Assembly (NCBI RefSeq): GCF_000018785.1
Contig: NC_010163.1
Coordinates: forward strand, 1,110,001-1,142,000
DNA from: Acholeplasma laidlawii PG-8A
GTDB taxonomy: Bacteria > Bacillota_I > Bacilli_A > Acholeplasmatales > Acholeplasmataceae
DNA: 32,000 nucleotides
Direction: 5' to 3'
Shown in pieces: positions 2,969-21,672 of this stretch. Made by a program: the position numbers and the translations under genes. Within the stretch, counting starts at the first letter, position 1. Every line of letters starts with the position of its first letter. The notes below the pieces were generated by a model. It was not told the origin of the DNA and did no database searches. It worked only from the letters and a program-made list of their open reading frames with translations.

Positions 2969-4963
2969 TTAGTCGATAACTACTTTTGTTCCAATGTATG
3001 CACTAATTTGTTCATAGTTCATCTCATCTTTTTGAATATCAAAAATCGGTATTAGACTTGCATAATCACTTTCTATACGTGATTTTAATGCTGTTGTAAT
3101 ATTTAGTGTGAAGTTAGAAATATTACTATTTTGACTTGTAATGTCTACTGATAATTCATCATACTTTTCTACTTGAATAAATAACATAGGAACTACTTTA
3201 GAAACCTTTGTTAATACATCATTTTCCATGACATAAAAGTATTGAATTCTAAATTCTATATCATATCTTCTGGATGCAGTTTTCAGTGTAAATCCACCAA
3301 ATGATTTTGTCTTAAACGGAGTTGTACCATTGTTGACATAAACTTCTTTAATTTGAGTTTCGGTATCTGTTTCATACTTAATGTTTGTAATACCAGTTTG
3401 GCTATCTAAATTAAACCATAGTGTATTATATTGAATTGAAGATAAAGTCTCCTTGACTTCGTATCCTAAAAGTTTACCAGTAGATTTTTGGTATAACTCT
3501 ACAATCGTTCCACTAAAGCCTAAAATAGCCCCCGCTTTATTTCCTACAACGGATACATATGTATCATCCACTTTAAATTGAGCAGCACTCGATAATGATT
3601 TTCCAGCTACTGTCATGTGTTCATATATTGAACCTTCAATATGTCCATTTTCATCTTCTAAAACTTCAATATAAGAAGTTCTAAATCCTAAATATTTTGA
3701 TGCGATCGTAAAACCATCTTCAAAAACTTCATATTTTACACTATTAGCATCACCAATTTGGATACGGCCATCTTTATCAGAAGTAACCACATTATAGTTT
3801 AATGCTATTTGAACAGTTTGTTCACCAAATACAGGTATATTTGCTGTGTAGTCTACAACGTAACTCAGTACTTCACCTTCTAATGAAATATACACATTAT
3901 ATATGCCTAGTTTAAATTCATAGTTAGAAGTATCATCAGGGTTACTATCTAAATAGTTGTTAAATGCTACAACACTTGCTGAACTTATAGTGTCAATTAC
4001 TGACAATACAGTAAATAAGGTTTCTGCTTGTTCTAGGTTATCTAGTACCATTTGCCATTGTTCACCATATCCACCAAAAGTAATTTGATTAGTATTTACA
4101 AATGTAGCATAATTTGAATTTAATTGTGCTTGTGTCTTTAATACACCACCTGCTTGCATATGTGTAGGTAATATGTCTTGTGGCTTAAATTTATATGTAT
4201 TTAGGAGACTAGATAAGTATTGTCCGATTGCAACTTGTTCATTCCAAATAGCGTAAATTTTCAAATTCGAAGTCATTGTAATAGGCCACTGAACTTCTAC
4301 CTTAGTAGATAAATTCGTGGTCCAACCAGCAAATTTAAATCCTTCTTTTGTAGGATCTTGTGGTTTATTAATTGACATATCTTCATCTACTGTAATTGCA
4401 TTCACAGCTGAGCCGCCATCTACATCAAAAGTTAATGTATAAGTAGGTGTTATATATTGCCAATTTGCATAGAGTGTTAGATCAGATGTAACTTCAATGC
4501 TATTTACTGAATTTCCAGTAAATTCATCTTCTAAATACCATCCCTTGAATTCGTGATTTGCTTTGTTAGGTGTTGGAAAATCACTAAATAACGTACCTTC
4601 ATTAACTTTTCTAGTAACTGTACCTTCTGGGCTATTTGTTACAAATGTTATTGTGTATATATTAACCTTATTAGTCCATTTTGCGTAAATAGTCATATTT
4701 GAGTTCACTACAGTACTTGATGTAGCTTCTTCAGTCTTAGCATTATTTGTATACCATCCAGCAAAATCAAAATTCTCTTTAGTTGTAGTAGGTAGTGTAC
4801 CTAAAGTAGATCCCTCATTGACTGTTTTATTAGATACACTTGTTCCACCGTCAACATCAAATGTAACCGTATAAGTCTTTAATTCAGGAGCCGGTTCATC
4901 TCCACAGGCAACCAGCACAAAGGCAGCCATTAAAAATCCTAATATGATGAAAATTTTCTTCAT
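2969..4963 (-). CDS. Surface lipoprotein with three Listeria-Bacteroides (Flg_new/InlB-B-like) repeats and a large uncharacterised C-terminal domain
   Basis: Signal peptide with lipobox VLVAC|G. Three ~70-aa repeats of the pattern YT(V/I/L)TF..(DGG)...F.GW......(I/L)YA.W. About 420 further aa have no motif I recognise. Confidence 0.85.
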   Translation of the reverse strand: MKKIFIILGFLMAAFVLVACGDEPAPELKTYTVTFDVDGGTSVSNKTVNEGSTLGTLPTTTKENFDFAGWYTNNAKTEEATSSTVVNSNMTIYAKWTNKVNIYTITFVTNSPEGTVTRKVNEGTLFSDFPTPNKANHEFKGWYLEDEFTGNSVNSIEVTSDLTLYANWQYITPTYTLTFDVDGGSAVNAITVDEDMSINKPQDPTKEGFKFAGWTTNLSTKVEVQWPITMTSNLKIYAIWNEQVAIGQYLSSLLNTYKFKPQDILPTHMQAGGVLKTQAQLNSNYATFVNTNQITFGGYGEQWQMVLDNLEQAETLFTVLSVIDTISSASVVAFNNYLDSNPDDTSNYEFKLGIYNVYISLEGEVLSYVVDYTANIPVFGEQTVQIALNYNVVTSDKDGRIQIGDANSVKYEVFEDGFTIASKYLGFRTSYIEVLEDENGHIEGSIYEHMTVAGKSLSSAAQFKVDDTYVSVVGNKAGAILGFSGTIVELYQKSTGKLLGYEVKETLSSIQYNTLWFNLDSQTGITNIKYETDTETQIKEVYVNNGTTPFKTKSFGGFTLKTASRRYDIEFRIQYFYVMENDVLTKVSKVVPMLFIQVEKYDELSVDITSQNSNISNFTLNITTALKSRIESDYASLIPIFDIQKDEMNYEQISAYIGTKVVID
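4244..4873 (-). repeat. Three tandem ~210-nt coding repeats (aa 31-96, 97-168, 169-240 of the lipoprotein)
   Basis: The repeated protein pattern YTxTF...GW...IYAxW appears three times in direct succession. Confidence 0.8.
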
Positions 4964-5082: not shown

Positions 5083-5277
5083 AACTATATTATTAGTTGA
5101 TTCTATTTTTCTAAGTATATCCATAATTATCCCCGTTATTAAGCATTTACTTTATTTAATTGTTTATCTTGATTTAATTATAACATGATAATATCATTTT
5201 TTAGTTGACCAAAAGTATAATCTTTAAATCTATATTTAGTTTTCATTTGCTTATTCCCCTAAACAGTTGTTATTACT

Positions 5278-5306
5278 ATTAGATCATTTATATCAAATTG
5301 TGTCAA
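5278..5306 (-). promoter_or_regulatory. Sigma-70-type promoter TTGACA-N17-TCTAAT with TG extension; GATC overlaps the -10
   Basis: The minus strand reads TTGACA (5306-5301), a 17-nt spacer ending in aTGa, then TCTAAT (5283-5278). GATC lies at 5282-5285. Downstream come an AGGGGA SD and a 22-codon mini-ORF. Confidence 0.5.
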
Positions 5307-5322
5307 CAAAGTGATCTGATAT

Positions 5323-5346
5323 AAAAAAAGACCTTAATAAAAGATC
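5323..5346 (-). terminator. Weak intrinsic terminator after the wH-T5orf172 gene
   Basis: Minus strand reads gatctt-ttatt-aaggtc (6 bp including one G-U pair) followed by TTTTTTT. Confidence 0.4.
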
Positions 5347-5360
5347 ATTTATTAATTAAA

Positions 5361-5954
5361 TTAGGAATGTAGATTATAACTTAACATGTCCTCAATTATG
5401 TTAAATATTTCGATACCTTTTTCAACCGGTAGTTTGAAAAACTCTCTTTTTTTGGCTTCAGTTTCTTTTCTTAAACTTGGATTCACTGTATCTATAAATG
5501 AATGAATACCTTTTTCAATTACAAGAGATTCTTTCATTGATTTGGTCTCTATAATCTTTTCCACTTTAAAAGGAAAAGGTACAGATGAATTATATAAAGA
5601 TTTCATTCTATTTTTAATTGAGTTTGTTCTACCTATCTTTACCCAACCAGGAATTGATTCATTTGAAACTAAATACACATAATCTTTTTTGCCTTTTTCC
5701 AATTCAGAGAAGTAAACTGCATCAAGTTTCATTTGATAAACCCCTGGTTCAATTCTATGAATAATTTCAAAGCGATTTAGATTTTGTAACGTTTGTCTGA
5801 TCTTTGCCTCTATATGAAAATTATTTGGATATACAGATTTAAACTCATCAAAAAAAGCATTTATATCCTTTAGTGAGAATATATTATGTTTAAACTTACT
5901 TTTTATGACCGTATAAACAAGATAGTTCCAACCATTTAATCTTTCAACTTCCAT
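5361..5954 (-). CDS. Fusion protein: N-terminal DpnI-C-terminal-like winged helix plus C-terminal T5orf172 (MUG113, GIY-YIG-superfamily) domain
   Basis: The N-terminus (GWNYLVYTVI...FSLKDINAFFDEFKSVYPNNFHIEAKIRQTLQNLNRFEIIHRIEPGVYQM) aligns with my memory of the DpnI wH domain (GW..., F.L.D., NNHIKEKIRQQLQILRD...G.Y). The C-terminus (YVYLVSN...WVKIGRTNSIKNRMKSL...EKGIH...REFFKL) matches the T5orf172 pattern. It has its own promoter, an AAGGGGAG SD and a terminator. Confidence 0.75.
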   Translation of the reverse strand: MEVERLNGWNYLVYTVIKSKFKHNIFSLKDINAFFDEFKSVYPNNFHIEAKIRQTLQNLNRFEIIHRIEPGVYQMKLDAVYFSELEKGKKDYVYLVSNESIPGWVKIGRTNSIKNRMKSLYNSSVPFPFKVEKIIETKSMKESLVIEKGIHSFIDTVNPSLRKETEAKKREFFKLPVEKGIEIFNIIEDMLSYNLHS

Positions 5955-5986: not shown

Positions 5987-6015
5987 ATTAGATCATGTTT
6001 TTACTTTTATGTCAA
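5987..6015 (-). promoter_or_regulatory. Promoter of the wH-T5orf172 gene: TTGACA-N17-TCTAAT, TG-extended, with GATC overlapping the -10
   Basis: The minus strand reads TTGACA (6015-6010), a 17-nt spacer ending in aTGa, then TCTAAT (5992-5987). GATC lies at 5991-5994. The architecture is the same as at 5278-5306. Confidence 0.55.
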
Positions 6016-6034: not shown

Positions 6035-6062
6035 AAAAAACCAATACAAATCACTGTATTGG
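6035..6062 (-). terminator. Intrinsic terminator closing the DpnII operon after the 82-aa gene
   Basis: Stem ccaataca (6041-6048) / tgtattgg (6055-6062), followed on the minus strand by TTTTTT. Confidence 0.65.
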
Positions 6063-6077
6063 CTTATGTTAATCGTA

Positions 6078-6326
6078 TTATAGACTTTGAATTTTTTGAC
6101 TTACCAAACTATCTAATAGTTCAACATCATCATTTTGAGTATATATTTCATATATTTCTTGAATTATTTCTAATAAAGTAGGTTTTACTGCTTCAGTAAT
6201 TTGACCAATATTATTCTCATAATACATCATTACCTTATATGCAATAAATACATGTGTAACATATAAATCTTCATTTTCTAATTGAGATTCTAGTTTTTTT
6301 GTAAAATCTAATAAATCAAATGCCAT
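6078..6326 (-). CDS. Small strongly acidic hypothetical protein, fourth gene of the DpnII operon
   Basis: 82 aa with 15 Asp/Glu versus 5 Lys/Arg, predicted helical. GGAG SD. It starts 37 nt after the dpnB stop, and the terminator comes only after it. A TATAAT also lies in the 37-nt gap. Confidence 0.65.
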   Translation of the reverse strand: MAFDLLDFTKKLESQLENEDLYVTHVFIAYKVMMYYENNIGQITEAVKPTLLEIIQEIYEIYTQNDDVELLDSLVSQKIQSL

Positions 6327-6363: not shown

Positions 6364-7215
6364 CTATGTATTAAATAGTTTATGGAGCACTTTATGTTCT
6401 AGATCATATAAGGTATATAAATGTTCTATATCGTTATAAGCTTCCTCTAAATTCTTTTTAGTGGATAACCAGCCTTTTCCATCAGTAATCCAAACAAACG
6501 ATACATTGTCTATCTCTTTGATATCTTTGGCTAGTTTAGCATAACTTCTTGAAGTCTCGTTTAATTTAGAACCACTTGTTCCATAGTAGTTAGTTTCTAT
6601 AAGATATATATGACCCATTTTATCTTTTATCACAAAATCAAAACGCTTGTTTGATTTTGTGTCTTTTAAAGTATTAGATATATCTACACCAAATTCCTTA
6701 TATATTTTACTTGTATTAGCTTCTTCAAGTATGTCTATGCTTGGAATATCTTTCAAGTTCTTTAAAACAATCTGCGACATCATTTTGCCACTTCTATTTT
6801 TTCTACTATTAGTATCTAGTCCAACTTCAACACCAGTGACATAATCTACTAGGTTTTTGATACGTTTATCGTAAAACAAGTCTATAAGTCCTGTTTTTCT
6901 AATAAACTCTATATAATTGACATTCGGATCATAATAGTTGAAATTATAGGATTTCATTACTTCATCTAACACTTGAATGTTGTTTTCCCTAACTGCGAGT
7001 AATACAGGTATAACAGTTATGATATTCGGGTGTTCTTCTAATAACACTTTAAAAGCCTCATCAAAATTATCTTTTCCGATAAGGTAGTTTAATGTATTAA
7101 GTTTTAATTCTATGTGCTCTACTATACTAAAGACTTTTTTAAAATCAACAAAATAATCATATGTTGATAAACCCTCTTTTATAGATTCTATAATGTCATC
7201 AAATGATCTTTTCAT
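6364..7215 (-). CDS. dpnB: Type II restriction endonuclease, DpnII/MboI family (GATC)
   Basis: Matches remembered S. pneumoniae DpnII motifs: LVDYVTGVEVGLDTNSRKNRSG, KRFDFVIK, YGTSGSKLNETSRSY, WITDGKGW and DLEH. The ATGA start/stop overlaps dpnA. Confidence 0.9.
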   Translation of the reverse strand: MKRSFDDIIESIKEGLSTYDYFVDFKKVFSIVEHIELKLNTLNYLIGKDNFDEAFKVLLEEHPNIITVIPVLLAVRENNIQVLDEVMKSYNFNYYDPNVNYIEFIRKTGLIDLFYDKRIKNLVDYVTGVEVGLDTNSRKNRSGKMMSQIVLKNLKDIPSIDILEEANTSKIYKEFGVDISNTLKDTKSNKRFDFVIKDKMGHIYLIETNYYGTSGSKLNETSRSYAKLAKDIKEIDNVSFVWITDGKGWLSTKKNLEEAYNDIEHLYTLYDLEHKVLHKLFNT

Positions 7216-7982
7216 TTATCCACTTCCCCAATGCTTTCTAATCTTTTAATACTCAAATTTAAATAGTCTTTCTCAAAATCAATGCCAATATATTTTCTGT
7301 TTAGCATGATACTAGCTACCCCTGTTGTACCACTACCACTAAATGGATCTAGTACAACATCACCTTCTTTAGTGGATGCTAGTATGATTCTTTCTAGTAG
7401 CGCTAAAGGCTTTTGAGTTGGATGTTTACCTAATCGCTTTTCAGAGGGTTTTGTCAAACTGAAACGCCAAACATCCTTCATTTGTTTATTGTTGTTTAAT
7501 GATTTCATGAGGCTATAATCAAAATAGTTTTTACTACCTTTTTTTCTTGCCCAAAGCACCGTCTCTGTTGAATGAGTGAATGCTTTTCTAGCAAGGTGTG
7601 GTGGTGGGTTTGTTTTTTCCCAAGTGATATTATTAATGATTTGAAATCCCTCTAGTTCTAGACAAACACCGATAATATAAATATTATGAAGTGTTCCAGA
7701 TATCCATATGGTACCTGTATCTTTTAATATCCTTTTACATTTGTTTAACCAAGTAGTGTTATATTTAATCTTTTCTTCAATGGTCATTTCTGTTTTATCC
7801 CAGGTAGCTTTATTGACAGATACCATCTTGCCACCTTGGCAAGTAATACCATTATTAGATAGAAAATAAGGTGGATCTGCAAAAATCATATCCACAGATT
7901 TTTCATCTAACTCATCTAGAATTTCAAAACTGTCTCCTAAATAGAGTTTGGCATTTCTATTATCATAGTATGGTTTATTCAT
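7212..7982 (-). CDS. dpnA: N6-adenine DNA methyltransferase DpnA type (second MTase of DpnII, N4/N6 MTase family)
   Basis: Motifs IFADPPYFLSN, NITWEKTNP, KQMKDVW, GKHPTQKP, ERIILASTKEGD and DPFSGSGTTG are close to pneumococcal DpnA as I remember it. Confidence 0.9.
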   Translation of the reverse strand: MNKPYYDNRNAKLYLGDSFEILDELDEKSVDMIFADPPYFLSNNGITCQGGKMVSVNKATWDKTEMTIEEKIKYNTTWLNKCKRILKDTGTIWISGTLHNIYIIGVCLELEGFQIINNITWEKTNPPPHLARKAFTHSTETVLWARKKGSKNYFDYSLMKSLNNNKQMKDVWRFSLTKPSEKRLGKHPTQKPLALLERIILASTKEGDVVLDPFSGSGTTGVASIMLNRKYIGIDFEKDYLNLSIKRLESIGEVDK

Positions 7983-8802
7983 AGTTAATGATAATGACTT
8001 CTTCTACATTTCCACGACCATTTGGATTTGAATTTACAACACGCTTTGCAGGGACAACATGTATCTTGTAATCTTTATAAAGATTTCTAATAAAGTCTGT
8101 ATTATGATTACTTAACATCACTTTCACACCACGCTTATCCAATGCTTTAAATGTTTCAAATAATCGTATTTGATCTTCTTTATTAAAATCGCCTTGAGCA
8201 TAGGATGTAAAGGAATTTTTATCTTCCCAAGGATCATATGGTGGATCAAAGTACACAAAGTCATCTTTTTTAGCATCCTTAACTACTTCTTCAAAATCTA
8301 GATTGTTTATATAGACCTCATTAGATCTTAAGTAGTAATGAATGCTTGTTATGTTATCTAAATCATAAAGTTTTACCTTATCTCTTTTTCCTGAAGGTAC
8401 ATTATAAAATCCTTTTTTATTGACTCTATATAAACCATTAAATCCTGCTTTATTTAAGTAAATTACTCTTGCGGCTTTTTCAAATGGTTCAAGTGCACTA
8501 TACCCTTCTAATCTGTCCATCTCTCTAACTTCATAATAATATGTTTCATTATGATTCTTTTCATGATGATCTAACTTTAAAAGTAATTTCTTAAATTGTT
8601 CATTATCTTGTAGAGATATGTAAACAGATATTAAATCCTTGTTTACATCATTGATATAGGCTACATTAGGAGCAAACTCAAACAAGACTGCACCAGCACC
8701 AACAAATGGCTCATAATATGCATTAAAGTGATAAGGCATAAGTTCTTTGATATGACTTAACATTTGTCTTTTCCCACCAACCCATTTTAATACCGGTAAC
8801 AT
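7975..8802 (-). CDS. dpnM: Dam-family (D12 class) N6-adenine DNA methyltransferase, GATC
   Basis: Motifs LKWVGGKRQ, EPFVGAGAV and FVYFDPPY. The track starts at TTG 8823. I prefer ATG 8802, which is preceded by an AGAGG SD. Confidence 0.9.
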   Translation of the reverse strand: MLPVLKWVGGKRQMLSHIKELMPYHFNAYYEPFVGAGAVLFEFAPNVAYINDVNKDLISVYISLQDNEQFKKLLLKLDHHEKNHNETYYYEVREMDRLEGYSALEPFEKAARVIYLNKAGFNGLYRVNKKGFYNVPSGKRDKVKLYDLDNITSIHYYLRSNEVYINNLDFEEVVKDAKKDDFVYFDPPYDPWEDKNSFTSYAQGDFNKEDQIRLFETFKALDKRGVKVMLSNHNTDFIRNLYKDYKIHVVPAKRVVNSNPNGRGNVEEVIIINYE

Positions 8803-8831
8803 TCCAACCTCTTTCAATAACAAGAGGTGTA

Positions 8832-8857
8832 TTCCTTAAAGGTACACCTTTAGGGAA
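8832..8857. repeat. 26-bp dyad site L (12-bp half-sites around a central AC); candidate serine-recombinase crossover site
   Basis: Sequence ttccttaaaggt-AC-acctttagggaa. The two half-sites match 11/12. The site lies 29 nt upstream of the dpnM ATG. Confidence 0.6.
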
Positions 8858-8955
8858 TTGTCAGTTTTTCAATAAATATTTCACTAAAGCCACAAACCTT
8901 AATAACTTGATCAATTTTATTAAAAATGATAGGATTAATATATATCACAAAACGA

Positions 8956-8981
8956 GTTAACAAAGGTGTACCTTTTAGGAA
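8956..8981. repeat. 26-bp site R, inverted copy of site L with central GT; candidate recombinase site
   Basis: Sequence gttaacaaaggt-GT-accttttaggaa. Positions 8962-8981 are the reverse complement of 8832-8851 with 1 mismatch in 20. The inner half-site is degenerate. The site lies 72 nt upstream of the recombinase ATG. Confidence 0.6.
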
Positions 8982-9052: not shown

Positions 9053-9631
9053 ATGACATACGCATATATAAGAGTTTCTAGTAAGACTCAACTTATTGAT
9101 AGACAACTATCAGAGATACACAAATTAAACATACCAAATAAAAATATCTTCGTAGATAAAGAAAGTGGTAAAGATTTTAATAGAAAGCAATATAAAAGAC
9201 TTAAAAGTAAACTCAAAAAAGATGACCTTGTTGTCATAAAAAGTATTGATAGATTAGGTAGGAACTATCAAATGATCATCGATGAATGGGCATATATCAC
9301 AAGGACTGTAGGTGCAGATATAAGAGTATTAGACATGCCATTATTAGACACTAGATCACACCCAGAAAACTTAGTAGGTAAGTTTATTAGTGATATTGTT
9401 CTACAAATACTTTCTTTTGTTGCAGAAAATGAGAGAGACAATATTAAACAAAGGCAAGCTGAAGGTATTAGAATAGCAAAAGAAAAGGGCATCCACATGG
9501 GACGCCCTAGATATGTTAAGCCAGATAATTTTGATGATATCGTTAGTTCATTTAAAAATAAACAAATAAGTCTTAATGAAGCCATTTCAACACTAGAATT
9601 ATCTAAATCAACGTTTTATAAGTATTTATAA
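9053..9631 (+). CDS. Small serine recombinase (resolvase/invertase family with C-terminal HTH)
   Basis: Motifs YIRVSS (catalytic Ser), DRLGRN, ENERDNIKQRQAEGIRIAKEKG and GRP, plus a C-terminal HTH (LSKSTFYKYL). AGGAG SD. An extended -10 TGcTAGAAT lies at 9011-9019. Confidence 0.9.
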   Translation: MTYAYIRVSSKTQLIDRQLSEIHKLNIPNKNIFVDKESGKDFNRKQYKRLKSKLKKDDLVVIKSIDRLGRNYQMIIDEWAYITRTVGADIRVLDMPLLDTRSHPENLVGKFISDIVLQILSFVAENERDNIKQRQAEGIRIAKEKGIHMGRPRYVKPDNFDDIVSSFKNKQISLNEAISTLELSKSTFYKYL

Positions 9632-10006
9632 TTTTTCAATAATAGGTAAATCAGCTGCTGCAAAATCATAGTCAGCCATTTCTTCCTTAGTTAAGAATTT
9701 TGTATCTAAGTGTTCATTGGGTTTAAATTCACCCGAAACATATTCAGCAAAATATGCATGTAATGTAATGATAAATGAGTTATACTCATGAACTACAGTA
9801 GTCAAAAAGTCAGTTACTTTAATTTCAACATTAAGTTCTTCTTTAATTTCTCTAGCTAATGCTTCTTGATGTGTTTCACCTGGTTCAACTTTACCACCAG
9901 GAAACTCCCATTTACGTGCAAGTTCGCCTTGGTCTTTTCTTTGTGCAGCAAAATACTTATTATCTTTTTTTATAACAGCTGCTACGACTTCAATTTGTTT
10001 TTTCAT
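9626..10006 (-). CDS. NUDIX hydrolase, MutT/NudG-like (deoxy)nucleoside-triphosphate pyrophosphohydrolase
   Basis: Nudix box GGKVEPGETHQEALAREIKEELNV, about 126 aa. The true start is ATG 10006, with an AAGGAG SD 7 nt upstream inside the REase 3' end. The track start at 10102 is an over-extension. Confidence 0.85.
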   Translation of the reverse strand: MKKQIEVVAAVIKKDNKYFAAQRKDQGELARKWEFPGGKVEPGETHQEALAREIKEELNVEIKVTDFLTTVVHEYNSFIITLHAYFAEYVSGEFKPNEHLDTKFLTKEEMADYDFAAADLPIIEKL

Positions 10007-12950
10007 TTTCTTTCTCCTTCGTGTAATCATATGTAAGTCTTTGATAAATATCATTTGGTACTCTATGTTCAAATTTAAGTTTAAACGAAATTGGTGCTTC
10101 ACCCACGTATTCTTCTACAAAAACTTTCCCTAAATAAGTAAAGTCTCTACTATAGCCTTTACCCTTAGTTGCTTCTGTTGCAGATTTTCTAACAAATAAG
10201 TGGAGGTTAAACCCTAATTCTTTATGGTTAACTAAATTCTTACCTGTTTCATTTGTGGTTCTTGTAGAACCAGGTGATTGCCAGTGGAATGTATTTTGAT
10301 CTATAAAATAGTCATCATAGTTAATACTATCATGTACATCGCCTTTTACCAAATTAACTGTTAAGTAATATTCTTTTTCAATTCTAATTAAGCCTGACAT
10401 TAATAGCCCTGACACATTTTTATCAAACAATGACAGTGTATAGATTTCAGTCTTAGAATACTCATGATAAAGATCTACAAATGGATAAGGTGCCACTTTT
10501 CTATCAAACTCATGATGATATCTAGCAAGACCATAACTAATTGTATTGTTGATAATATCTGTGTATCTAACGTTTTCAAAAATATTACTAAAATCATCGG
10601 ATACTCTGATTTGACTATTTGATTTTTCTATAACCTTTATATTATTCTTTTTATCCGTTACTGAACCAAATTCTAGGAGTAGGTTTTTTACCGAGTGATT
10701 AAAGCTATCCAGGTTAGGGTTATCAATGTATTTTTTCATTTTTGAAAATAATTCATTCATTTCTAGTGCTTTATAATGAGTTAGTTCCCTTAATATTGCA
10801 TATTCATAAGGGCGTTTAATTGGTAACATACTATCGAGATATCCAATTAATTTAATAAATGAATCGTGTAATGAGGAATCTTCTAAAATACCTTTTTCCT
10901 GTGATGCTACAAAACTAATATAGGATTTTTTCTTTTTTATGAACCTAATCGGATCAAACTCATCAAATGCAAAGTCTGTTAATCTAGGAACACGTCCTAG
11001 ATTTTTCTTTTTATCTAGATATGCTTCCTTTAGATAAGTGATCTCGTTAAAGTCAGTAGCCTCTAATTGTGCTAATATTCTTTCCTTTGATACTTTATTC
11101 AAACTAATAAAAGTATCTCCCGGTATATCAAAGAAATCATTTGCTGTAGATACAATCAAATCATCCTTATCATAGGCTTTATCACCAATAAGTGCAATCG
11201 GAAGTAAAAAGTTCTTGTTATGGTTTGCAATAAAGTCTAATACTGTTAAATATTCTTTATCTTTATATTTTCTTAAACCTCTACCAAGTTGTTGCGTGAA
11301 AATAATAGATGAATTCGTCGGTCTTAGCATTAGTATCAAATTCACTGATGGTATATCAATACCTTCATTAAATATCTCTACTGTAAATATATAGGATAAG
11401 GGATCATTTGGATCTTCTAATCTTCTAATAGTATCTTCTCTGTCAAGTTCAGCCGTTCCACCAGTTAAGGCAATAGATACTAATCCTCTTTCATTAAAAG
11501 CATTAGCCATATATTCAGCATGGGCAATATTCACACAATAACCAAGTGCTTTGGTCTTATCTCCAGAATGTTTGTACTTTTTAATATTCTCAATAATTAA
11601 CTCTACACGAGCCTTGATATTTAGTTTTTCAGCTAGTTTATCTATTTCAGTATTTAAATTAATATTTTGAATATCCGTTGTTGCATCTTCTATACCAAAA
11701 TAGTGAAATGGTACTACAAGTTCTTTTTCTAAAGCTTGTCTTAATCTAATTTCAACTGCAATCTGATTATCATATAATTCATAAATATTTCTAGAATCGG
11801 TTCTTTCGGGTGTCGCTGTCATACCTAATAAAAACTTAGGTGTAAAGTAACTTGTGATTCTCTGATAACTATCTGCAGCACTACGATGTGCCTCATCTAT
11901 AATAATATAGTCAAAATAGCTAGGATCAAATAGGTTTAAGTTATCAATTTTAGAAATAGTTTGAACAGATGCAAAAAGATAATCACTTTCTAAATCTTTT
12001 TTAGAACCTACAAATTCACCCATTGATACTTCAGGCATAATTGTTTTGAATGTTCTAAGTGCATCCCTTAATATTTTTCCTCTATGTACAACAAATAATA
12101 CCTTTTTAGGTCTTAACTGGAAAACATCAAATGCAGATAGGTATGTTTTACCAGTTCCAGTGGCAGCAATAATAAGTGCTTTATTACCCCCACTATTTCT
12201 AATGTTATTTAGGCCCTCTAAGGCCATTTCTTGCATTTCATTAGGTTTTATTTCATTAACATCTACTTGTTCAATAAAATCTTTAAGTTCGTTATTTTCA
12301 TCGATATTAAATCCTTGCATCGCATCCACAATCTCGTGATCAGGATTTCTCTTGATAAATTCAAAAAAGAAGTCAAGCATTGCCTTTTTGCCTTCATCAA
12401 CCATTCTTTTACTCTCATAGAGTGTTTTATATTCTTTTATGACTTTAGGTGTTAATTGTAGGGATTTAGGGTCATTAAATAATTCATCAAAGTTATCGAT
12501 GATATTTTCTTTAGTTTTGTCATCATTTTTGGCAACATACTTCAAATTCCACTCGTGGTTATTTTTAAGTGCATACTGAGTCATATTACTTGAACCAACT
12601 ACAATTTCAAAATGATTTCCCATATCGAATATATATGCTTTTGTATGAAACTTTCTAATACTTGTTAAAGCATCATATAGTTTTGCCTCTATATAGTTTT
12701 GGTCACCTATCATTTCAAGTGCTCTAGGTGTAGTACCAAACTCATAATTAGTTGTTATAAGTTTTCCTTTGACACCTCTTTTACCTGCATCTATAAGATC
12801 ATCTATGATGAGTTGCAAGCCAGAGTCACTAATAAAAGCCACGCTAAAAGAAAAACTTTGACATCTTTTCAAAGCATCTTTTAAATAATGATAAAAGCTT
12901 GATTTTAAATTGTTCGTAAGAAGTTCTACGGGTTGTTGATTTATTTTCAC
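9990..12950 (-). CDS. SauUSI-like Type IV modification-dependent restriction enzyme: N-terminal PLD nuclease, SF2/ResIII helicase, C-terminal DUF3427 (SRA-like) domain
   Basis: PLD HxK motif FHTKAYIFD...GSSNMT. Helicase motifs AATGTGKT (I), IIIDEAHR (II), GMTATPER (III) and QQLGRGLRK (VI). The C-terminal FHWQSPGSTRTT...HLFVRK...YLGKV is typical of DUF3427. GTG start with a GAGGT SD. Confidence 0.8.
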   Translation of the reverse strand: MKINQQPVELLTNNLKSSFYHYLKDALKRCQSFSFSVAFISDSGLQLIIDDLIDAGKRGVKGKLITTNYEFGTTPRALEMIGDQNYIEAKLYDALTSIRKFHTKAYIFDMGNHFEIVVGSSNMTQYALKNNHEWNLKYVAKNDDKTKENIIDNFDELFNDPKSLQLTPKVIKEYKTLYESKRMVDEGKKAMLDFFFEFIKRNPDHEIVDAMQGFNIDENNELKDFIEQVDVNEIKPNEMQEMALEGLNNIRNSGGNKALIIAATGTGKTYLSAFDVFQLRPKKVLFVVHRGKILRDALRTFKTIMPEVSMGEFVGSKKDLESDYLFASVQTISKIDNLNLFDPSYFDYIIIDEAHRSAADSYQRITSYFTPKFLLGMTATPERTDSRNIYELYDNQIAVEIRLRQALEKELVVPFHYFGIEDATTDIQNINLNTEIDKLAEKLNIKARVELIIENIKKYKHSGDKTKALGYCVNIAHAEYMANAFNERGLVSIALTGGTAELDREDTIRRLEDPNDPLSYIFTVEIFNEGIDIPSVNLILMLRPTNSSIIFTQQLGRGLRKYKDKEYLTVLDFIANHNKNFLLPIALIGDKAYDKDDLIVSTANDFFDIPGDTFISLNKVSKERILAQLEATDFNEITYLKEAYLDKKKNLGRVPRLTDFAFDEFDPIRFIKKKKSYISFVASQEKGILEDSSLHDSFIKLIGYLDSMLPIKRPYEYAILRELTHYKALEMNELFSKMKKYIDNPNLDSFNHSVKNLLLEFGSVTDKKNNIKVIEKSNSQIRVSDDFSNIFENVRYTDIINNTISYGLARYHHEFDRKVAPYPFVDLYHEYSKTEIYTLSLFDKNVSGLLMSGLIRIEKEYYLTVNLVKGDVHDSINYDDYFIDQNTFHWQSPGSTRTTNETGKNLVNHKELGFNLHLFVRKSATEATKGKGYSRDFTYLGKVFVEEYVGEAPISFKLKFEHRVPNDIYQRLTYDYTKEKENEKTN

Positions 12951-20334: not shown

Positions 20335-21672
20335 ATGATGCATGAACACTTAACATCTATTTATAATGAATTACAGACTAAATATAGTTATCAAAAAGAG
20401 TATCTTCAATCTGTATATGAATTCTTTGAATCTATTTCAGAGGTTATTGAAGAAGATCCTAGAATCATTGAAACAAATATTATACGTAACATTGTAGAAC
20501 CAGATCGTATTATCACCTTTAAAGTTCCTTGGGAAGATGATAAAGGTGCTAGACATGTAAATACAGGTTACCGAGTACAGTTTAACCAAGCACTAGGTCC
20601 ATATAAAGGTGGTATTAGATTTACACCTAAAGTCAATGAATCCATACTAAAATTTTTAGGATTTGAACAAACCTTTAAAAACAGTTTAACAGGTATACCT
20701 TTAGGCGGGGCTAAAGGTGGCGCTGATTTTGATCCAAAACATAAAAGTGACCAAGAGATCCTAAGATTTTGTAGATCTTATATGATGGAACTACATAAGT
20801 TTTTAGGTCCCAACATGGATATTCCAGCAGGAGACCTAGGGGTTTCACAAAAAACAGTCGGTTATATGTTTGGGATGTATAAACGCTTAACTCAAAGACA
20901 TGAAGGCGTATTTACTGGTAAGGGCACTAAATATGGTGGTTCCTTAGCTAGAACTGAAGCTACAGGTTACGGTATTATTTATATGGTACTTGCTGCTTTA
21001 AAAACTTACTTTCAAACAGATTTAAAAGACAAAATAGTTATTATATCCGGTAGTGGTAATGTTGCCATACATACAGGGTATAAGGCTCAAGCAATGGGTG
21101 CTAAAGTGGTTGCTATGTCTTCTATTGATGGTGTGATACACCATGAAACTGGTATTGACGTGTCTTACTTAGAATATATTAAAGATAATAATTTATCAAT
21201 TAAAGATTATACTTTACGTTATCCTTCGGCAATTTTCGCAGAAAATCCTAAACGCATTTGGGAAATTAACTGTGATATTGCACTACCTTGTGCAACCGAA
21301 AATGAATTAGATTTAGAGGAAGCTAAAAAGTTAGTAGATAATGGCATTATGTTACTTGCAGAGGGTGCGAATATGCCAACTACTTTAGATGCTACACACT
21401 ATTTTCTTGATAACAACATTCTATTCATTCCAGGTAAGGCATGTAATGCAGGTGGTGTATCGGTCAGTGGACTAGAGATGCAACAAAATGCATTACATAC
21501 TTATTGGGATTTTGATACAGTTGATCAAAAACTACAAACTATCATGAATCGTATTTTCGAAGATATGTATGAAACTGCTAGAAGTTATGGCGATGATAAA
21601 AATTTAGTTAAGGGTGCAAATATTTTATCCTTTAAACGAGTTTATCAAGCTATGCTTGAACAAGGTCTATAA
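20335..21672 (+). CDS. gdhA: NADP-specific glutamate dehydrogenase
   Basis: Motifs GPYKGGIRF and GGAKGG, a Rossmann motif GSGNVA, and typical hexameric GDH length (445 aa). Confidence 0.9.
   Translation: MMHEHLTSIYNELQTKYSYQKEYLQSVYEFFESISEVIEEDPRIIETNIIRNIVEPDRIITFKVPWEDDKGARHVNTGYRVQFNQALGPYKGGIRFTPKVNESILKFLGFEQTFKNSLTGIPLGGAKGGADFDPKHKSDQEILRFCRSYMMELHKFLGPNMDIPAGDLGVSQKTVGYMFGMYKRLTQRHEGVFTGKGTKYGGSLARTEATGYGIIYMVLAALKTYFQTDLKDKIVIISGSGNVAIHTGYKAQAMGAKVVAMSSIDGVIHHETGIDVSYLEYIKDNNLSIKDYTLRYPSAIFAENPKRIWEINCDIALPCATENELDLEEAKKLVDNGIMLLAEGANMPTTLDATHYFLDNNILFIPGKACNAGGVSVSGLEMQQNALHTYWDFDTVDQKLQTIMNRIFEDMYETARSYGDDKNLVKGANILSFKRVYQAMLEQGL

Follow-up and report, generated by a model that had tools for sequence, protein, structure and literature searches.

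The 32,000-nucleotide stretch of the Acholeplasma laidlawii PG-8A genome analysed here (NC_010163.1, positions 1,110,001 to 1,142,000; hereafter the window, whose own numbering is used throughout) carries a gene for a nuclease that joins an R.DpnI-like winged helix (wH) to a GIY-YIG domain, and a cassette of the DpnII type lies beside it. The wH-GIY-YIG enzyme is predicted to be directed at GATC with a methylated adenine (Gm6ATC), the modification that the neighbouring methylase should make. On balance, we favour the reading that this type IV nuclease is the cargo of a module in which a recombinase inverts a 110 bp promoter segment beside dpnM and thereby toggles DpnII; two opposed restriction systems probably take turns. 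We hold a fuller version more tentatively, in which the one locus is a reversible toggle between DpnII and methyl-dependent nucleases (wH-GIY-YIG, GmrSD-like or PLD-wH), with a GATC interlock in the −10 region of the nuclease promoter and an antidote encoded by a small open reading frame (ORF), orf82. The nuclease gene and its two domains are located as follows.

5361..5954, minus strand: wH-GIY-YIG nuclease gene, 197 amino acids (aa), A. laidlawii ABX81690.1
5733..5933, minus strand: DpnI_C winged helix, PF17726, aa 8–74 (Pfam E 4.2e-13)
5394..5681, minus strand: T5orf172/GIY-YIG domain, PF10544, aa 92–187 (Pfam E 3.1e-16)

The domain assignment agrees with the original prediction, which was made from the letters of the sequence and had proposed a DpnI_C-type winged helix fused to a T5orf172/MUG113 domain. 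The DpnI_C ('Dam-replacing HTH') match scores 49.7 bits against a Pfam cut-off of 23, and MUG113 is also matched in the C-terminal part (E 4.3e-9). The sole sequence match in the PDB is to residues 189–254 of R.DpnI (E 4e-4). An AlphaFold2 (AF2) model built from 31 homologues, with a predicted local distance difference test score (pLDDT) of 79, consists of two domains separated by a disordered linker (79–87). Its top Foldseek matches are the DpnI–DNA complexes 4kyw and 4esj, with a root-mean-square deviation of 1.2–1.5 Å over about 70 columns at 34% identity, and its C-terminal half is matched by the Slx1 GIY-YIG nucleases with probability 1.0. The wH fold and the methyl-pocket helix are thus the same as in R.DpnI, a type IIM enzyme. 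The arrangement differs: R.DpnI carries a PD-(D/E)XK domain N-terminal to its winged helix, whereas here the winged helix is N-terminal and the GIY-YIG domain C-terminal, and no PD-(D/E)XK match was found in the Pfam, PDB sequence and Foldseek comparisons.

The DpnI-like recognition-helix pattern quoted in the prediction is real, HIEAKIRQTLQNL in the nuclease corresponding to HIKEKIRQQLQIL in DpnI. After correction for a three-residue offset in the PDB chain, the methyl-pocket and GATC residues E228, K229, R231, Q232 and Q235 of DpnI align with A50, K51, R53, Q54 and Q57. Of these five, K51, R53, Q54 and Q57 are retained, and none of the four varies among 31 family members. In place of E228 the A. 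laidlawii protein has Ala50, and the related loci L002 and L020 likewise encode alanine; most family members have D/E, among them Apa233I and the DpnII-linked loci L004 and L013 (A. equifetale). In the 31-member alignment, the GIY-YIG invariants Y94, K106-I107-G108-R109 and R170-E171-F172 are all present in the nuclease, and at least 90% of the sequences have its R116 as well. The ratio of nonsynonymous to synonymous substitution (dN/dS) is 0.11 against the 83%-identical orthologue of L002. With every catalytic invariant kept under such a ratio, a MutH- or SeqA-like sensor and a pure methylation-state regulator, both raised in the prediction, find no support.

Characterized proteins of this architecture exist, and the earlier statement that none was known is outdated. 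The main text of Helbrecht et al. (Helbrecht, Heiter, ..., Bochtler and Xu, Front Microbiol 2024; PMC11037411) describes purified Ahi29725I from Acholeplasma hippikon and Apa233I from A. palmae J233 (WP_026653965), which cut Dam+ DNA and not Dam− DNA. According to the same text, both cleave outside their site, at a distance of N1-23 for Ahi29725I, and Apa233I also cuts hemimethylated sites. The window nuclease is 50% identical to Apa233I (P0034, WP_026653965.1) over 186 aa (E 5e-63). It has the two-domain architecture and length of both enzymes, together with their K-x-R-Q-x-x-Q recognition helix and all of the GIY-YIG invariants; it differs in the alanine at the E228 equivalent. It is the domain identity and the homology to Apa233I that lead us to regard it as a probable cutter of methyl-GATC. 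It is best filed as a further member of the wH-GIY-YIG family of N6-methyladenine-dependent (Gm6ATC-directed) type IV enzymes, with a presumed methyl dependence. On the best explanation, the winged helix would dock on methylated GATC and the GIY-YIG domain would cut nearby. The PADLOC candidate system PDC-S57 also matches the nuclease (E 3e-24); the match covers profile positions 3–104 of 221 only, which is the nuclease domain, and PDC-S57 has its T5orf172 domain at the N-terminus followed by a different C-terminal part, unlike the window protein.

A type IV enzyme is expected to have no conflicting methyltransferase nearby. Here, dpnM and dpnA lie 1.3–2.9 kb upstream on the same strand, in the following arrangement.

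7975..8802, minus strand: dpnM, Dam-family GATC methyltransferase, 275 aa, ATG at 8802 (PF02086, E 2.6e-62; TIGR00571 dam, E 1.4e-81)
7212..7982, minus strand: dpnA-type N6-adenine methyltransferase, 256 aa (PF01555, E 4.6e-62; DPPY and FSGSG motifs)
6364..7215, minus strand: dpnB, DpnII-type GATC endonuclease, 283 aa (PF04556, E 1.7e-101, end to end; PADLOC REase_II)
6078..6326, minus strand: orf82, acidic ORF of 82 aa that separates dpnB from the nuclease gene; candidate immunity factor or antidote
6038..6065, minus strand: terminator-like hairpin with T-run that ends the dpnM-dpnA-dpnB-orf82 unit; an equivalent is found in all linked loci

The three cassette genes are all full length, match their respective Pfam models end to end and form one operon with a dN/dS of 0.06–0.07; the DPPY and FxGxG motifs of dpnM are intact, and the A. 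laidlawii records call that gene at 275 aa. The nuclease gene had been placed directly downstream of dpnM-dpnA-dpnB. The adjacency and the intact cassette hold; 'directly' does not, as orf82 and the hairpin intervene. The paradox seen by the prediction, a methyl-GATC nuclease beside a GATC methylase, is real and is conserved across the lineages that carry the module. Because the native locus of Apa233I has the conflicting methylase too, this neighbour is a property of the clade and no ground for exclusion from the type IV family. Every gene of the module is under purifying selection (dN/dS 0.06–0.31). As a separate observation, a hairpin (ACCTCTT-N8-AAGAGGT, 8807–8828), located immediately downstream of the switch described below, sequesters the ribosome-binding site of dpnM; it is shared by the A. 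laidlawii, L002 and L020 lineages but missing from A. palmae and A. equifetale, and may delay or tune translation of the methylase.

We surveyed the co-occurrence of this architecture with DpnII cassettes in 57 further family-member loci from genomes and metagenomes, searched with the neighbouring proteins of the window. The order recombinase (divergent)-dpnM-dpnA-dpnB-small acidic ORF-nuclease recurs in A. laidlawii and at least five other Acholeplasmatales lineages. These include three metagenomic lineages, with nucleases 83–85%, 62–65% and 55% identical to the window protein, A. equifetale ATCC 29724 (52%), and A. palmae J233, where the module is the native locus of Apa233I. About 13 lineages are unlinked, judged with at least 3.5 kb of upstream flank: they lack DpnII, orf82 and the GATC promoter alike, and their nuclease genes are flanked by helicases and HNH nucleases, as for stand-alone type IV genes. 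In Haploplasma axanthum (L091, AUAL01000011.1, 6360–8922), the same recombinase, sites, DpnII, a small ORF (orf86) and the GATC promoter are followed by a different cargo, AIPR and a PLD-DpnI_C wH nuclease that keeps D/E at the E228 equivalent; the PLD-wH fusion is another methyl-GATC reader in the main text of PMC11037411. Since the cargo can be swapped, what the DpnII cassette is coupled to is the class of methyl-GATC readers rather than a single gene. In a neighbour-joining tree, most linked genes fall into one clade, and that of A. equifetale pairs with the unlinked L043; a single clade of all DpnII-linked nucleases has a bootstrap of only 22/200 and was rejected, and we make no claim on one or several origins of the linkage.

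Beside dpnM lies the switch, which is composed of four elements.

8832..8857, no strand: hix-like site proximal to dpnM, a 26 bp imperfect palindrome with core AAAGGT-AC-ACCTTT at 8838–8851; one inversion breakpoint
8852..8961, no strand: invertible segment of 110 bp that carries a conserved promoter-like element
8956..8981, no strand: hix-like site proximal to the recombinase gene, core AAAGGT-GT-ACCTTT at 8962–8975
9053..9631, plus strand: small serine recombinase, 192 aa (PF00239, E 5.6e-25), divergent from dpnM

The closest solved relatives of the recombinase are the Sin/Bin3 'DNA-invertase' (E 2e-26) and gamma-delta resolvase, and the gene is present in every module for which the flank is available. 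The arms of the hix-like sites (20 nt) are 95% complementary, and the central dinucleotides of the two sites are mutually inverted, as at hix sites. Three matches to the core were found in the window against 0.07 expected, two of them exact at the switch. The third, ACAGGTATACCTTT at 20689–20702, has one mismatch and lies far from the module; it may have arisen by chance or be another sequence on which the recombinase acts. Both sites of the switch are conserved in all of the modules, 124 bp apart in most; in the L092 lineage the distance is 114 bp. Among nine A. laidlawii assemblies, the segment is oriented as in the window in seven and exactly inverted in two (GCA_002252075.2, L082, and GCA_001729645.1, L086), with unchanged flanks; the former has 0 mismatches to the window over the 930 bp nuclease region. 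Because both orientations occur among assemblies of the species, the 110 bp segment is shown to invert physically in nature, and the switch is real. The Logan assembly of SRR7081816 is interrupted at both cores: the start of contig 4 and the end of contig 5 each coincide with the first base of the core that the sites share, and neither contig contains the segment. A mixed population would be expected to give this break, since a de Bruijn assembler splits the sequence where the two orientations coexist.

The only blocks of the segment conserved across species form a promoter-like element, TTGAyy-N17-TGaTAsGAT (8907–8935, plus strand, in the window). The window version reads TTGATC (8907–8912)-N17-TGaTAGGAT, with the −10 at 8930–8935. 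It faces the recombinase gene and points away from dpnM; after inversion it would face dpnM. On this basis, we infer that the window holds the DpnII-off state. The segment promoter itself carries a GATC, located in the −35 in A. laidlawii, whereas other species have it across the 3′ end of the −10, as TAsGATC (equivalent positions compared in L020, L013, L061 and L091); DpnII expression may also respond to its own methylation through this site.

Compared with Hin/hix and the Mpi-type invertons of Bacteroides, the switch has the same adjacent serine recombinase, inverted 26 bp imperfect palindromes with a 2 bp core, and both orientations in nature. It differs in its very short segment of 110 bp and in its proposed control of a type II restriction-modification operon coupled to methyl-dependent nucleases, and its recombinase is closest to Sin/Bin3 rather than to Hin or Gin.

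The GATC site recurs in the sequence elements that flank the nuclease gene.

5987..6015, minus strand: promoter-like TTGACA-N15-GATCTAAT upstream of the nuclease gene, −35 at 6010–6015
5323..5346, minus strand: weak hairpin (GAUCUU...AAGGUC) with T-run just past the nuclease stop; contains GATC
5278..5306, minus strand: second copy of TTGACA-N15-GATCTAAT, preceding a GmrSD_N/DUF262 remnant
5178..5246, minus strand: remnant of a GmrSD_N/DUF262 type IV gene, 22 codons (MKTKYRFKDYTFGQLKNDIIML; compare MKSQYKFKDYTFGQLKDEITMPDFQRS at the N-termini of L020 and L004)

The nuclease gene does look monocistronic, as had been predicted, with its own promoter-like motif and its own hairpin and T-run; the latter was read directly from the sequence, its G+C content being too low for the threshold used in the terminator scan. 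In the motif, the extended −10 is TGaTCTAAT, with GATC at 5991–5994. The placement of TG at −15/−14 and of GATC at −14 to −11 reads as an extended −10 promoter. The window holds two copies of the motif against 0.01 expected. Across all of the loci fetched, it is present in every DpnII-linked locus, always at 29 nt, and in zero confirmed unlinked loci; L019 and L024 carry it too, with flanks too short to classify their linkage. It precedes type IV-like genes downstream of DpnII cassettes, and in all linked loci a hairpin terminator sits between orf82 and the nuclease gene. In L020 and L004, the motif is followed by an intact GmrSD_N/DUF262 gene (549–581 aa; 581 aa in L020), and A. palmae has an intact GmrSD_N gene downstream of the nuclease gene, where the second motif was not detected. 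The IS10 transposase promoter pIN is an example of a Dam-methylation-sensitive promoter with GATC in the −10. The window promoter likewise has GATC in its extended −10, and may respond to methylation. Genes for modification-dependent nucleases thus stand under a promoter that includes the target site of the methylase next door. The simplest reading is that methylation would silence the GATC nuclease promoters, either by a direct effect on sigma binding or by way of the wH protein. Downstream of the module lies a gene for a 664 aa lipoprotein with Flg_new repeats (2969–4963, minus strand); in this lineage nothing but the remnant separates it from the second GATC promoter, and it might now be under that promoter; the protein has 553 or 664 aa in different A. 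laidlawii strains.

From its position, orf82 is taken to be co-transcribed with the methylases and split from the nuclease gene by the terminator. The ORF is 100% identical to an A. laidlawii protein and had zero matches in Pfam, NCBIfam, PADLOC and PHROG. Its homologues form 24 clusters; the named ones all belong to Acholeplasmatales, and each of the contexts inspected is inside the module. The product is acidic, with an isoelectric point (pI) of 4.1 (range 4.1–5.1) versus 9.3 for the basic nuclease, and the AF2 model (pLDDT 80) predicts a four-helix bundle. Purifying selection is again indicated (dN/dS 0.31). A speculative role is that of an antidote that would cover the dangerous off-to-on transition.

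Regarding the target itself, GATC is the most depleted palindromic tetramer in the window, with 80 sites observed and 122 expected under a Markov model (ratio 0.66), and several sites in the 32 kb are just 9–31 bp apart. The depletion is consistent with intermittent GATC-directed restriction. Avoidance of GATC as the means of protection is ruled out by the 80 sites that remain.

These elements can be combined into the alternation that we favour. With the segment promoter facing dpnM, the dpnM-dpnA-dpnB-orf82 unit would be on, the chromosome would be GATC-methylated and DpnII would restrict unmethylated invaders. With the promoter facing the recombinase gene, as in the window and most assemblies, DpnII would be off, the chromosome unmethylated and the methyl-dependent nucleases expressed. 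The nucleases of such DpnII-off cells would restrict Dam-methylated DNA, including that of phage released by DpnII-on siblings. A methylated promoter GATC would silence them whenever the cell's own DNA is methylated, and orf82, made together with the methylases, would neutralize leftover nuclease after an off-to-on flip. We infer three parts of this scheme, namely which orientation is 'on', the repression of the promoter by methylation and the role of orf82. Of the possibilities raised in the original prediction, an effector released upon a change in methylation or a flip of the DpnII switch fits best, given the inverted segment in assemblies and the GATC promoter in linked loci.

Several points weigh against this reading. 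The E228 equivalent is alanine in the A. laidlawii clade where Apa233I, L004 and L013 have D/E, and the specificity could differ. The on/off assignment rests on one consensus-level promoter within the segment; a weak sigma-70-like match outside it (9059–9032, minus strand) could drive dpnM constitutively, and the assemblies from outside A. laidlawii show the recombinase-facing orientation only. The sequence of the GATC promoter is also compatible with a methylation effect of the opposite sign. Switching on a type II endonuclease over an unmethylated chromosome is itself hazardous. The depletion of GATC is only moderate (observed/expected 0.66), and the orf82 model found no fold match in the PDB.

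The coincidence of the two systems could also be of another kind. DpnII might be constitutive and the genome methylated, with the nuclease made but held inactive by orf82; phage shut-off of host expression or loss of the module would then let orf82 decay, and the nuclease would destroy the methylated host together with host-modified phage DNA. Such a toxin–antidote or abortive-infection role would close the loophole of phage that escape restriction and become modified. It draws on the confinement of orf82 to these modules, on its place between DpnII and the nuclease gene, on the pairing of an acidic with a basic protein, and on the intactness and purifying selection of all of the genes. We consider it unlikely: unlike in typical toxin–antitoxin pairs, a conserved terminator and separate promoters part orf82 from the nuclease gene, and the invertible promoter, the fixed GATC in the nuclease promoter and the GmrSD-like gene under the same promoter are all left unexplained. 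The conflict with DpnM would vanish altogether if the winged helix of the linked clade no longer licensed cutting at fully methylated GATC; its targets may then be another N6-methyladenine context, hypermodified phage DNA, or hemimethylated or unmethylated sites. Avoidance of conflict by a different specificity is suggested in the main text of Helbrecht et al. (PMC11037411), and the alanine of A. laidlawii, L002 and L020 replaces a residue that lines both methyl pockets. However, Apa233I, whose gene belongs to the same linked module, cuts Dam+ and not Dam− DNA, D/E is kept in L004, in A. equifetale (where the strain sequenced has a pseudogene) and in the H. axanthum PLD-wH protein, the other four pocket residues are invariant, and a change of E to A enlarges the pocket and does not block it. 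A changed specificity is accordingly quite improbable in our estimate; as the sole explanation it was rejected, with no clean correlation between the E228-equivalent residue and DpnII linkage.

A last alternative is that the genes adjoin by chance in a defence island, or that one partner is non-functional, with no functional coupling. The PLD-helicase-DUF3427 type IV-like enzyme that adjoins the module and the disrupted copies in some strains (A. equifetale; single A. laidlawii assemblies) would suit this view. It is nevertheless very improbable, being largely refuted because synteny is conserved: order, promoter motif, terminator and sites recur down to 47–50% protein identity and, in Haploplasma, with a different wH nuclease. 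The range of 47–98% identity argues against one recently transferred element, dN/dS is 0.06–0.31 for all genes, and the disruptions are scattered and may partly be sequencing errors.

The linkage to DpnII appears unreported. The main text of PMC11037411 describes only EcoRI-like methylases near wH-GIY-YIG genes and makes no mention of DpnII linkage. There, the enzymes are viewed as stand-alone, Dam conflicts are rare genome-level coincidences (20/1141 genomes), and it is proposed that conflicts might be avoided through other specificity or tight regulation. In the literature searched, we found nothing relevant on GATC methylation, the proteome or phase-variable DpnII in A. laidlawii, and no paper that describes methylation-licensed expression of a methyl-dependent nuclease through a GATC promoter. 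As far as this literature shows, the recombinase-switched, GATC-interlocked pairing of DpnII with a methyl-GATC nuclease is an undescribed variant of phase-variable restriction.

What matters here is the context and not the architecture: across genera, Apa233I and its relatives are firmly tied to the methylase that makes their substrate. In the cassette model of Lacks for Streptococcus pneumoniae, the DpnI state cuts methylated GATC and the DpnII state unmethylated GATC. The biological logic is like that of the proposed Acholeplasma module; in S. pneumoniae the two are alternative alleles in different strains, whereas both lie in one locus here, with an inversion switch. If the alternation is correct, the module would be the one-genome counterpart of the pneumococcal polymorphism, and a clonal population would at all times include cells that can restrict phage coming from siblings in either state. 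This would amount to a bet-hedging population defence against the weak point of restriction-modification systems, namely phage that have escaped and are now modified. It would also show how modification-based and modification-dependent restriction of one site can coexist without self-killing, and provide a concrete case of DNA methylation as a safety interlock for a nuclease. A. laidlawii is cultivable and strains with both switch orientations exist, making the model directly testable.

Some copies of the module are disrupted. In A. equifetale ATCC 29724 (L013, 6980–10627), the module is decaying: an in-frame stop interrupts the nuclease gene within the interdomain linker, and dpnM has broken up into ORFs of 74 and 182 aa. 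In individual A. laidlawii assemblies, DpnII is shortened at its N-terminus (265 aa), the nuclease lacks its C-terminal end (185 aa, WP_069586312.1), or dpnM and the PLD-helicase gene are both split (disrupted assemblies L080, GCA_001650335.1; L081, GCA_001729655.1; L086, GCA_001729645.1). These may be partly homopolymer sequencing errors, and among the A. laidlawii assemblies no consistent pattern links gene disruption to switch orientation. Decay of the module would be compatible with a costly combination of genes.

Finally, the module is adjoined by the PLD-helicase-DUF3427 gene (9990–12950, minus strand, 986 aa; PADLOC mREase_IV, E 6e-152), which overlaps a Nudix gene (9626–10102, minus strand). 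A. laidlawii-like loci retain this pair next to the module, so that the locus forms a defence island in which several modification-dependent enzymes are encoded.

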